A DNA stretch of 32,361 bases from an uncultured Pseudomonadota bacterium (lineage in GTDB: Bacteria; UBA10199; JADFYH01), in assembly GCA_964457215.1 (NCBI GenBank), contig CAYWGE010000003.1, positions 1 through 32,361 on the forward strand, read 5' to 3'. Shown here piece after piece: positions 9,579 through 24,306 of the stretch (position 1 is the first letter of the stretch; each line of letters begins with the position of its first letter). Under the pieces are notes generated by a model, which had not been told where the DNA came from, ran no database searches, and saw nothing but the letters and a program-made list of their open reading frames with translations. Position numbers and translations under genes: made by a program.

Positions 9579-9585
9579 AAAATTA

Positions 9586-11162: not shown

Positions 11163-12635
11163 TTAAACTTGCTTGATCGCTTCCATCACAGCCTTGGCCT
11201 TATTTTCACATTCTTGATATTCCGAGGAGGGAACCGAATCTTGAACAATCCCTGCACCCGCCTGCACCGCAATAAACTTTTTACCTAAGGCAACAGAACG
11301 AATCGTAATCGCCATATCCATATTGCCTGCAAAATCGATATACCCGACACACCCCCCGTAAGGCCCACGTTTGACGGGTTCGAGCTCTTCGATAATTTCC
11401 ATAGCGCGAATTTTGGGAGCTCCCGAGAGCGTGCCCGCCGGAAAAGTCGCTTTCAACAAATCAAAGGCATTATAGTTTTTTTGCAACTGCCCTTCCACAT
11501 TCGAAACCAAATGCATCACATGCGAATAGCGCTCAACCTTCATGAGTTCACTCACCTGAACAGAACCGGGCTCGCAAACTCTTCCTAAATCATTGCGCCC
11601 TAAGTCTACCAACATAATATGCTCCGCTCTCTCTTTAGGATCTGCCAACATTTCCTTGCTTAACGCTTCGTCCTTTTGAATATTTTCTCCTCTTTTTCGA
11701 GTGCCCGCAATAGGACGAACAGTGGCCTTACTTCCTTCCAAACGCACTAAAACTTCTGGGGAGGAGCCCACCAACGCTTCTTCTCCCATTTTTAAACAAA
11801 AAAGATAAGGAGAAGGATTTAATAGACGAAGTTTACGATAGAGCTCAAATGCATCTAATTTCCCTGGTGCCTCCCAACGCGTCGAAAGCACCACCTGAAA
11901 AATATCCCCTGCGCGGATATATTCTTGCGCACACAAAACCGCTTCTTGATATTTTTTGGAAGACATCGAACTTTTCCAACTCAGCGGTTTCGATGTTTTT
12001 TTCTTTTTTACAGACAATTTCAAAGGAGTTTGAACCTGCCGCAGCGTTTTTTTCAAATCGTTCACGGCTGCTTCATAAGTTTTTTTAAGAGAAACTCCCG
12101 CTTCTACACAAGCATTCACCACCACATAATAGCAGTGTTTTAAATTATCAAAAATGAGAAGGCGATCGTAAACGCCAAAACAAAAATCGGGAAAATCGAG
12201 CTTGGGCTTTTGGGAGCTCGGTAATCGCTCAAAATCTCCAACTAAATCATAAGCCAAATACCCAACGGCACCCCCGCAAAGCTTAGGCAATTCTTCATCT
12301 GCCACGAGCTTCACATCCTTGAGCTCTTCTTCTAAAATTTTAAGGGCCTGACCTTCTCCCGCTCTTGTCTTTTTTAAATGCAGTCCTTTGCGCTGAAATA
12401 GTTCCCATTTTCTTTCAGAGGAACGAAGCACCAAACGAGGACCAATACCTAAAAAAGTATACCGTCCCCAATGCTCTCCGCCCTCCACACTTTCAAATAA
12501 AAACAGATAGGGTTCTTTCGAGAATTTTAATAATGCCGCTACGGGCGTCATTAAATCGGCAGGAACTTTTTCAAATAATGAAATATAGTTTCCACGCTTT
12601 GCTAAATTTTGAAATTCTTGGAAAGAAATGGGCAT
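11163..12635 (-). CDS. trpE: Anthranilate synthase component I
   Basis: Chorismate-binding signature (FPAGTLSGAPKIRAMEIIEELE, RGPYGGCVGY). Start trimmed to ATG 12635 (MPISFQEF...). The track extension to 12680 runs into the repeat element. Confidence 0.93.
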   Translation of the reverse strand: MPISFQEFQNLAKRGNYISLFEKVPADLMTPVAALLKFSKEPYLFLFESVEGGEHWGRYTFLGIGPRLVLRSSERKWELFQRKGLHLKKTRAGEGQALKILEEELKDVKLVADEELPKLCGGAVGYLAYDLVGDFERLPSSQKPKLDFPDFCFGVYDRLLIFDNLKHCYYVVVNACVEAGVSLKKTYEAAVNDLKKTLRQVQTPLKLSVKKKKTSKPLSWKSSMSSKKYQEAVLCAQEYIRAGDIFQVVLSTRWEAPGKLDAFELYRKLRLLNPSPYLFCLKMGEEALVGSSPEVLVRLEGSKATVRPIAGTRKRGENIQKDEALSKEMLADPKERAEHIMLVDLGRNDLGRVCEPGSVQVSELMKVERYSHVMHLVSNVEGQLQKNYNAFDLLKATFPAGTLSGAPKIRAMEIIEELEPVKRGPYGGCVGYIDFAGNMDMAITIRSVALGKKFIAVQAGAGIVQDSVPSSEYQECENKAKAVMEAIKQV

Positions 12636-12643
12636 GATAGTGA

Positions 12644-12784
12644 GTAGCGGGTCTGTGTTTTTGAAGCAAACACAAAGCAAGCCGAATAATCATTATTTTG
12701 AAAACAGCAATTTTTTGAATCCTCTATAAAACATTGTTGTTTACGGCGAATTTTGTGTGCGCTAAAAAAATACAGACCTGCTAC
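12644..12784. repeat. Hairpin element A (141 nt), homologous to element B
   Basis: The outer arms GTAGCGGGTCTGTGTTTTT (12644-12662) and AAAAATACAGACCTGCTAC (12766-12784) pair with two G-T wobbles when read on the plus strand. Inner stem: ACACAAAG (12670-12677) with TTTTGTGT (12751-12758). It shares the 15-nt core ATTTTGAAAACAGCA (12695-12709) and TTACGGC (12741-12747) with element B. Confidence 0.7.
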
Positions 12785-12789
12785 ATTAT

Positions 12790-13137
12790 TTAGGAGGATA
12801 ACTTTTGAATAAACTCACAACCCGAAATGGATTGAGCTTTCTTTAAATCCTCACAACCTGCTTTTTCGATGTTTTGAAGACAATTTTTTAAAGCCGCATC
12901 ATCTAACTGAACTTTAGAATCCTTCGGAAGCCGATCATTACTTCCTTGAAATAAATCATTCATCTCTTTGGCGCATTGATTCTGAGGTATTTTCTGACTT
13001 GCACACTCTTCCATCTTCTTACAAAAAACCTCCGAAGTTTTGCTCGACACTTCTTTAAAAGGTAGGGGCTGAGCCGCGCTCACTAAGCCCGAAACAAAAA
13101 GTGAAACAATCATCAAAGAAATAGTTTTTATTTTCAT
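12790..13137 (-). CDS. Small secreted Cys-rich protein (115 aa)
   Basis: Signal peptide MKIKTISLMIVSLFVSGLVSAA. Six Cys in the mature part. AAGAGG SD ~5 nt upstream of the ATG. I recognise no family. Confidence 0.6.
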   Translation of the reverse strand: MKIKTISLMIVSLFVSGLVSAAQPLPFKEVSSKTSEVFCKKMEECASQKIPQNQCAKEMNDLFQGSNDRLPKDSKVQLDDAALKNCLQNIEKAGCEDLKKAQSISGCEFIQKLSS

Positions 13138-13182
13138 AAGAACCTCTTGATTAAAATCACTCTCCTTTAATTAATAATTATT

Positions 13183-13325
13183 TGTAGCAGGACCCCATTT
13201 CTGAAGAGAAGACAAAAGTGCCTAACTTATCTATTTTGAAAACAGCACTTTTTCGATCTCTTTAAAAAAATACTTTTCCTTACGGCATATTTTTGTCTGA
13301 ACGGAAGAAATGGGGTCCTGCTACA
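13183..13325. repeat. Hairpin element B (143 nt), homologous to element A
   Basis: Perfect 19-bp outer arms: TGTAGCAGGACCCCATTTC (13183-13201) and GAAATGGGGTCCTGCTACA (13307-13325). Inner stem: AGACAAAAG (13210-13218) with TTTTTGTCT (13290-13298). Same core ATTTTGAAAACAGCA (13233-13247) and TTACGGC (13280-13286), in the same orientation as element A. Confidence 0.7.
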
Positions 13326-13344
13326 ATCATTTTTAAACATAAAA

Positions 13345-14244
13345 TTATTCTGAGCTCAAGCCTTCAAATACACGGTAAGCGCACCCCATGACTCCCGCCC
13401 TATTTCCCAGCTTTGCCTTCTGAATTTTTACCCGCTTGGCAGTATGCGCATATAAATGATTTTTTATTGATTGGTGCATGCTTTGGTTAAAATAATTCCA
13501 AGCTCCTGAAAGGCCACCACCAATCAAAATAGTTTCAATATCTAAAGCATTGACGATACTAGCGACGCCCACACCTAAGGCTTCTCCAAACTTTTTCCAC
13601 TCTTGTAACGCGAACCTATCACCTTCTTTTGCGAGCTGATACATTTGCTCAGGATCTTTTTTGAAAACTTCAGAGGAAGCATATTTCTCTAAACAACCTT
13701 TTCCTCCGCAATTACAAGACTTCCCTTTTTTTTCAATGACCAGATGCCCTAACTCTCCTGCAAATCCAGAGTCACCCTGCCAAAGCTTTCTATTGAGAAT
13801 AATCCCTCCGCCGATTCCTGTACCCAAAGTGAGCAAAATAAAGTTTTTTTTGTTTTTTCCAGCTCCTTGCCAGAGCTCTCCCAATGCAGCGTGGTTTGCA
13901 TCATTATCGACCCAAATTGGAAATGCCAATTTCTGTTTGAGTTTTTTTAAAACGGGATAATTTTTCCAGGTTAAAAAATGGGGGGACTGCCGCACGATTC
14001 CATGCGGATGCTGCACAATTCCGGGAACTCCTAGACCTATCCCTGCGACTCTGTAGCCGTGGTCAGTAGCCCAAGCCTCCTCTTCTTTGAGATGAAAGAG
14101 AAGGTTTTCTAAAATAATCGAAGATTTTTTTTGCGAAAGCGAAGAGACTTGATGTTGATGGAGAATTTTTCCTGCGGAATTCACCACCGCACATTTTAGA
14201 TGAGTGCCTCCCACATCGATACCAATGGCCACTTGATTTTTCAT
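13345..14244 (-). CDS. ROK-family sugar kinase (glucokinase-like)
   Basis: VAIGIDVGGTHLKCAVV ATP-binding start, DNDANHAALGE, and the ROK Cys cluster CNCGGKGCLE. Start trimmed to ATG 14244, which overlaps (ATGA) the stop of the upstream Yip1-like gene. Confidence 0.85.
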   Translation of the reverse strand: MKNQVAIGIDVGGTHLKCAVVNSAGKILHQHQVSSLSQKKSSIILENLLFHLKEEEAWATDHGYRVAGIGLGVPGIVQHPHGIVRQSPHFLTWKNYPVLKKLKQKLAFPIWVDNDANHAALGELWQGAGKNKKNFILLTLGTGIGGGIILNRKLWQGDSGFAGELGHLVIEKKGKSCNCGGKGCLEKYASSEVFKKDPEQMYQLAKEGDRFALQEWKKFGEALGVGVASIVNALDIETILIGGGLSGAWNYFNQSMHQSIKNHLYAHTAKRVKIQKAKLGNRAGVMGCAYRVFEGLSSE

Positions 14245-22760: not shown

Positions 22761-22833
<73 letters not shown>

Positions 22834-22919
22834 TAAAATTTGGTAGCACCAAATTTTTCCGAATTACGAACTCTTGCTACCAAATTTCGTTCTTCAGAAA
22901 AAATCGCGCCACCACCCAC

Positions 22920-24226: not shown

Positions 24227-24306
24227 TAGTTATCAGTTGCCAGTTGTTAGTTGTCAGTTAACAAAATACCTTTTTCTAGAAACTGATCACCGGTAACTGA
24301 CAACTG
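24227..24306. repeat. Inverted arrays of heptanucleotide repeats (YAGTTRN)
   Basis: The plus strand has TAGTTAT CAGTTGC CAGTTGT TAGTTGT CAGTTAA (24227-24261, 5 x 7 nt). The reverse complement of 24281-24306 reads CAGTTGT CAGTTAC CGGTGAT CAGTT. AGTTGTCAGTTA (24249-24260) pairs perfectly with TAACTGACAACT (24294-24305). TTTTT follows on the plus strand. Confidence 0.6.

Follow-up and report, generated by a model that had tools for sequence, protein, structure and literature searches.

In the window, by which we mean the whole 32,361-nucleotide stretch of DNA analysed here, two short palindromic elements, A and B, are interspersed with a string of co-directional genes in the order Yip1-domain protein, ROK-family kinase, B, a 115-aa open reading frame (the small ORF), A, trpE, trpG, trpD, trpC, trpF, trpB, and trpA (Table 1). 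The neighbouring genes all lie on the − strand, so that the elements, in their family orientation (+), are antisense to every flanking gene. The spacers around the small ORF measure 153 and 207 nt, and A takes up 141 nt of the former, which separates the trpE ATG (12635) from the small-ORF stop (12790), as the initial annotation had stated; no obvious Shine-Dalgarno sequence for trpE was seen in any of the upstream regions read. The small ORF is Cys-rich with a hydrophobic, signal-peptide-like N-terminus, received no Pfam domain in a scan that covered the seven genes nearest the elements, and sits directly upstream of trpE throughout the clade in conserved synteny. Exact-sequence look-ups of the 115-aa protein and of a 552-aa protein of the window returned no record, the latter differing at 2 residues on the JGI contig Ga0172278_1621. 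The closest named relatives of the lineage are metagenome-assembled genomes (MAGs) labelled “Deltaproteobacteria bacterium”.

Table 1. Coordinates of the elements, their flanks, and neighbouring genes in the window.
Feature	Position	Strand	Description
trpE	ATG at 12635	-	downstream of A
A left flank	12636..12643		GATAGTGA, presumed decayed target duplication, 4/8 match to right flank
Element A	12644..12784	+	141-nt MITE-like imperfect palindrome between 115-aa ORF stop and trpE ATG
Best-conserved internal block in A	12736..12756	+	GTTGTTTACGGCGAATTTTGT
A right flank	12785..12792		ATTATTTA, overlaps 115-aa ORF stop codon
115-aa ORF	12790-13137	-	between A and B
B left target-site duplication	13176..13183		AATTATTT, 7/8 match to right copy
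Element B	13184..13324	+	141-nt copy, oriented as A, between ROK kinase stop and 115-aa ORF
Same conserved block in B	13276..13296	+	TTCCTTACGGCATATTTTTGT
B right target-site duplication	13325..13332		AATCATTT
ROK-family kinase gene	13345-14244	-	neighbour of B
Empty C target site	9579..9585		AAAATTA, 7 nt between trpC ATG and trpD stop

Each element is bounded by GTAGCRGG and CCTGCTAC, and the pattern GTAGCRGG-N(100-130)-CCTGCTAC occurs just twice in the 32-kb window, at A and at B, with 0 occurrences expected from shuffled sequence. The bounds originally given for A were exact, whereas those given for B (13183-13325) had taken in one flanking base on each side of the core. The two do belong to a single homologous family, with a common orientation, common termini, and shared core blocks, namely TATTTTGAAAACAGCA (16 identical nt, one more than first counted) and TTACGGC. 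Aligned to each other, A and B have a mean column identity of 82%, and the most conserved internal block of the family reads TTCCTTACGGCGnnTTTTT as a consensus in the copies other than A. The inverted arms of A and B span 33-47 nt at a complementarity of 77-82% and thus constitute terminal inverted repeats, within a family architecture of 141-146 bp in which arms of ~45 nt flank an asymmetric core of ~55 nt; past the first 3-8 nt, the arms diverge between copies at about one-third of positions. A and B have no ORF in common: those of 20 aa or more that overlap them begin in flanking sequence, on different strands and in different frames. As RNA, the + strand of each element folds into one long rod of −57.8 (A) and −58.0 (B) kcal/mol, with z-scores against shuffled sequence of −9.9 and −9.5, compared to −6.0 and −8.3 for the − strand, and DNA parameters gave the same outcome.

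Related loci were retrieved by exact-protein look-ups and range from strains to distant relatives. A near-identical strain is represented by contig Ga0172278_1621 (L004, L075, and L083; 99.5% identical to the window), and a Logan assembly (L076) is 99.2% identical. A more diverged lineage (L009, ENA ERZ27275549) encodes a small ORF that is 92% identical, and two sister-species loci, L007 (GCA_964384365.1) and L069 (Ga0172278_1718), have a small ORF that is 77% and a TrpE that is 83% identical; both JGI contigs, Ga0172278_1621 and Ga0172278_1718, come from JGI 3300013121. The TrpE of three distant relatives (L070, L077, and L080) is 59-64% identical. The Yip1-ROK-small ORF-trpE synteny is kept in L007, L069, L077, and L080, and L070 has only the small ORF-trpE part.

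Orthologues of A are present in L004, L075, L076, and L009, and the orthologue of B in L004 and L076. The A of L009 is 92% identical to that of the window. The left arm of its B, at L009:1-40, is far more diverged (GTAACGGACTCGTATTTCAT vs GTAGCAGGACCCCATTTCTG), and the contig ends inside the element; GTAACGGACTCGT is the sequence that a co-evolving right arm would match. This right arm was sought through ROK homologues, among whose matches the L009 lineage did not figure.

In the sister species, the A site is empty, with 9 nt (L007) or 8 nt (L069) between the small-ORF stop and the trpE ATG, and in L080 the two genes are 41 nt apart, the spacers at its A and B sites measuring 41-46 nt. The B site of L007, L069, and L080 likewise holds other sequence or a short spacer without B. 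A covariance model (R1) trained on A and B only recovered a third copy, C, in L007 (L007:13414-13561; 55.6 bits, E = 6e-11). This copy lies between trpD and trpC, in the same orientation relative to the genes as A and B, at a site that is empty in both the window (Table 1) and L004, and excising C together with one flanking repeat from L007 leaves an 8-nt spacer resembling that of the window. The rod fold and the terminal inverted repeats are found in all three copies. Copies of the family have been gained at different sites in closely related species. The three known insertion sites all lie in or beside the trp operon, a clustering that is largely an ascertainment effect because all fetched loci were centred there, with the exception that A and B lie ~540 nt apart within 58 kb.

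The flanks of the copies carry the signature of insertion by target duplication. Copy C is bordered on both sides by a perfect 8-bp direct repeat, AATAAATT, and the flanks of B match at 7 of 8 positions. By chance, correctly spaced 8-mers agree in 7 or more bases at 0.1% of positions, and in 0.67% of cases if they are AT-rich; agreement in all 8 bases was reached in none of 1190 AT-rich trials. The flanks of A match less well in the window, and at 5 of 8 positions in L009. We conclude that members of the family enter intergenic spacers at A+T-rich targets of 8 bp, which are thereby duplicated.

[quoted passage not shown] We base this assignment on the small size, the terminal inverted repeats, the 8-bp target duplications, and the filled and empty sites, and MITEs are defined by terminal inverted repeats, target duplications, the absence of a transposase gene, and a long stem-loop (PMC3184786). 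At 141-146 nt, the copies are small (< ~400 bp) and have no conserved ORF, and they occupy three unrelated sites that are filled or empty among relatives. The initial annotation had set the elements apart from MITEs, a contrast that did not survive these hallmarks (a target duplication of 8/8 at C and 7/8 at B, and filled versus empty sites). Several observations fit the MITE assignment less well: no transposase was seen in the DNA read and copies are few there, the flanks of A match at only 4 of 8 positions, the arms diverge more than would be expected if one sequence-specific transposase bound repeats of 20-30 bp, and the one-sided changes in the helices invariably give G·T on the same strand, a pattern that would not be expected of a purely double-stranded mechanism.

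Among known families, Correia/CREE of Neisseria, ERIC of enterobacteria, RUP of pneumococcus, and Nezha of cyanobacteria are alike in their size of ~100-170 bp, the absence of a transposase gene, terminal inverted repeats, and a target duplication; they too are intergenic, often inside operons, form one long stem-loop (PMC3184786), and occupy filled and empty sites between close relatives. Unlike them, however, the elements described here duplicate 8 bp of A+T-rich target rather than TA, appear to have a low copy number, and have arms that are strongly diverged between copies yet still complementary. They also have no sequence similarity to these families, and no match in Rfam or in a plasmid collection.

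No transposase was found in ~58 kb of the window species (the window, L066, and L083) or in the related loci, and movement would need a transposase supplied in trans and making 8-bp staggered cuts. The 7-base termini, GTAGCGG (A), GTAGCAG (B), GTAAAGG (C), and GTAACGG (B in L009), match the IS66 terminus GTAAGCG at 4-5 of 7 positions, and A matches at 6 of 6 after deletion of one base. Insertion sequences of the IS66 family have inverted repeats starting with GTAAGCG and generate 8-bp direct repeats (PMC11946415), and the elements resemble them in their 8-bp direct repeats and GTAG/GTAA starts. Unlike IS66-family members, they have no tnpA, tnpB, or tnpC, and their agreement with the consensus is confined to the first 3-4 bases and some of those that follow. 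The combination of GTAG/GTAA termini and 8-bp duplication suggests that the mobilising enzyme may be IS66-family-like, and we regard this link as a lead, not proof.

Covariation was assessed in an alignment of six sequences (three of A, two of B, one of C), representing three independent copies, across 27 long-range pairs, namely 19 in the outer, 6 in the middle, and 2 in the inner helix. On the + strand, all 161 cells of these pairs form standard pairs, the outer 19 pairs being 100% paired in the 6 sequences, and 11 of the 27 pairs have changed on both sides. None of 500 shuffles reached these pairing and covariation values, and slid controls were 40-58% paired. The outer-stem differences between A and B are thus compensatory, each copy staying self-complementary, and the C-G to G-C swap reported in the inner stem was confirmed. 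Another compensatory change, T-A to C-G, is seen in B at strain level (GTGCC...GGCAT vs GCGCC...GGCGT). Hence, the earlier claim that selection acts on the pairing, in a way not expected for MITEs, stands as far as pairing is kept through compensatory changes and fails where it separates the elements from MITEs. Kept pairing does not distinguish these elements from mobile DNA, because MITEs classically form long stem-loops (PMC3184786), and REPINs as well retain their hairpin despite a variable interior, often through compensatory changes (PMC3116915, PMC3337134). The arms may have stayed complementary because a folded single strand is under selection or because one arm is corrected against the other, e.g., by template switching.

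An explanation of the pairing without selection, which we consider possible while thinking it more probably wrong than right, is that template switching or gene conversion within the molecule homogenises the arms, or simply that both ends must match one transposase. Replicative template switching is able to generate perfect hairpins and to preserve them, in a way that mimics compensatory substitution (PMC8794818). Where several adjacent bases have changed (TCTGTG vs ACCCCA vs CCAGCG), the other arm mirrors the run exactly. Although the window and L075/L076 are 99.2-99.5% identical overall, 8 of the 141 positions of B and 4 of the 141 of A differ between them, compared to 4 of 348 for the intervening ORF, which suggests an elevated local turnover. 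Neither homogenisation nor the need to match one transposase predicts, however, that the remaining one-sided differences are without exception G·T on the same strand, A·C and transversion mismatches being absent.

This strand-specific bias had been noticed for four pairs in the initial annotation, and it extends to the whole alignment. The non-Watson-Crick pairs of the helices are all G·T on the + strand (11 cells) and none is G·T on the − strand, where the same 11 cells become A·C and leave 93.2% of cells paired; across the six sequences, the + strand helices contain no A·C or transversion mismatch. In 5 of 6 copies, the + strand is also the better folder of the two. The 11 one-sided G·T cells go back to at least 5 independent changes, and 3 of the one-sided changes are recent strain-level C-to-T changes. 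With 5-7 events in three independent copies, the two-sided p of the bias is ~0.06-0.016 if only transitions are considered and ~0.008-0.001 if transversions are allowed. Deamination biased toward the leading strand and the non-transcribed strand would give the opposite asymmetry here. The + strand of the window has a negative GC skew throughout and is C-rich, the composition of a lagging strand, and for this reason replication skew predicts the opposite asymmetry as well. The wobble pairs are therefore biased by strand in a manner that no explanation tried matches, and we grade this bias as suggestive because the estimate rests on three independent copies.

One reading of the bias, which we think unlikely and which could coexist with mobility, is that the functional unit is formed by the + strand, either as a structured non-coding RNA or as a hairpin of single-stranded DNA specific to that strand, with selection acting on its pairing. 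The complete pairing of the 161 cells, the 11 two-sided changes, and the 500 shuffles that fell short would all follow from it, as would the restriction of one-sided cells to G·T with no transversion mismatch, the better fold in 5 of 6 copies, and the direction of the bias, opposite to that expected from replication skew. Against it, a + strand unit would be antisense to each flanking gene, the copies have no conserved promoter or terminator and no Rfam match, sister species keep the operon without the elements, and the bias itself comes from only three independent copies, with p ~0.06-0.016 or ~0.008-0.001 as above. At gathering thresholds, the sole Rfam match in the whole window is a tRNA, and with E up to 10 only generic plant and animal miRNA-hairpin models appear, scoring 15-30 bits against thresholds of 94-211. 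A search for a conserved promoter or terminator inside the copies gave only weak 9/12 matches in AT-rich DNA, and comparison by eye with the IHF consensus gave only weak, non-conserved matches. The novel structured, plus-strand antisense RNA put forward in the initial annotation accordingly gained no independent support, whereas its observation that the region upstream of trpE has neither a leader nor a T-box was upheld and, with Rfam, extended to 6S RNA. Nor are the elements a trp regulator, since sister species with the same operon do without them.

The strand bias and the target duplications could also be reconciled in a hybrid mobile element, which we hold to be decidedly unlikely. Such an element would make 8-bp duplications like a DDE transposon and, in addition, depend on an obligatory, perfect + strand rod, as a single-stranded transposition intermediate or substrate or as a functional antisense RNA, with purifying selection tolerating only changes compatible with G·U or G·T pairing.

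It appears quite improbable that the elements are REPIN-like, i.e., two inverted GTAG-tagged REP units forming a hairpin and moved as single-stranded DNA by a RAYT, an IS200/IS605-like tyrosine transposase. The outer ends of A and B carry GTAG, as in head-to-head dimers of GTAG REPs with spacers of 20-100 bp (PMC3733652), a hairpin doublet of up to ~150 nt with outward GTAG ends is a shared likeness, the variable spacer, kept hairpin, and common compensatory changes noted above for REPINs would fit, and recognition of a single strand would explain the strand-specific wobble bias. REPIN movement has been modelled on IS608/IS200-type single-strand transposition (PMC3116915). The 8-bp target duplications at C and B do not fit this reading, and neither does the start of C, which is GTAA rather than GTAG, or the covariation, which favours the long-range helix. 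To our knowledge, an IS200/IS605-type single-strand mechanism makes no target duplication. While REPINs typically number hundreds of copies, the elements do not appear in such numbers, and the loci read showed no RAYT gene. A local palindrome of the REP type within the arm is not conserved, with 7 bp in A, ~5 in C, and ~3 in B (A6 alignment).

Two further candidates were rejected. Integron attC sites are alike in their conserved ends, variable self-complementary interior, strand-specific folding, and similar size, and the two copies in the window bracket one small ORF. The ends of the elements read GTAGC...GCTAC, however, and not RYYYAAC...GTTRRRY, the bracketed ORF is ancestral at this position in relatives devoid of the elements, target duplications are present, and no integrase-like ORF was noticed among the ORFs of the window (the Pfam scan covering the seven nearest genes). 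A composite transposon or cassette carrying the 115-aa ORF was discarded on the grounds that this ORF is syntenic in relatives that do not have the elements; with the Yip1-ROK-small ORF-trpE synteny kept in these relatives, the ORF is a resident and not cargo.

Finally, the hairpins could in principle be intrinsic terminators, attenuators, a trp leader, or another ordinary part of the operon rather than a repeat family, as their intergenic position in a co-directional gene string and the placement of A directly upstream of trpE might suggest, but the elements contain no terminator-like site, the searches gave no leader, T-box, or other Rfam match, one family occupies three unrelated spacers, and the third copy with its target duplication together with the empty sites refutes this reading, which we give next to no credence.

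Returning to the MITE assignment, the family appears to be sparse. Of the readable DNA, the ~58 kb from the window species contain 2 copies, the 20 kb from L007 contain 1, and the 21 kb from L069 contain none, and searches with the R1 model and a scanner for GTA...TAC hairpins gave no further copies in L066, L069, L070/71, L077, L080/81, and L083, the weak matches of both being other hairpins or coding sequence. A scan of a genome collection with TTTTGAAAACAGCA-N58-78-CCTGCTAC returned only 3 unrelated chance matches, and a metagenome scan with the core plus TTACGGC returned 56 loci, none of them element-like by blastn, both with patterns that predate the recognition of the best-conserved block. 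Viral contigs scanned with TTCCTTACGGCGnnTTTTT gave 3 chance matches, and a plasmid collection searched in distant mode with A and C as queries gave no match. This is a previously undescribed, apparently low-copy MITE family of an uncultured lineage.

Other palindromes were observed in the same genomes. A second intergenic family, built of the tandem heptamers CAGTTAT / CAGTTGY and their complement, occurs in the window at 24229-24304 and at L066:4636-4713, one of them between an AhpC-like gene and rplQ and another between rplB and rpsS. At 22840-22890 of the window, a hairpin TTTGGTAGCAcc...cttGCTACCAAA adjoins a tRNA gene (22761-22833, − strand) and contains GTAGCA/TGCTAC, as do the termini of A and B, a likeness that may be coincidental or may mark the hairpin as a mini-derivative. 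In the sister species, the spacer between the ROK gene and the small ORF holds a different, composite element (L007:9852-9948, L069:9504-9599), made of two G+C-rich hairpins (e.g., CCTCCTCTTCAGATGAAGAGGAGG ... CCCCCTCTTAATCTTAAGAGGGGG) with GGTTAGGRGG and GTGATC between them, and a similar composite lies just upstream of trpE in a distant relative (L077:9885-9994). The trpD/trpC junction of L069 (L069:13056-13108), which corresponds to the C site of L007, contains an unrelated insert of ~45 nt with the hairpin CCTCGTGcagcaaggtCACGAG. The same operon spacers are repeatedly invaded by different small palindromic elements.

As MITE insertions, A and B would be passengers in the ROK - small ORF - trpEGDCFBA string, probably co-transcribed as long hairpins. 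For annotation, this means that the 153-nt and 207-nt spacers are transposon insertions rather than regulatory leaders of trpE or a trp attenuator. In the relatives L007 and L069, trpE begins 8-9 nt past the preceding ORF, and in the window species A interposes a hairpin of −45 to −58 kcal/mol. On a small scale, the locus shows cleanly how an essential biosynthetic operon in an uncultured lineage has gained MITEs and, if the G·T pattern is upheld with more copies, it would point to a single-stranded form of a duplication-making MITE being under selection.
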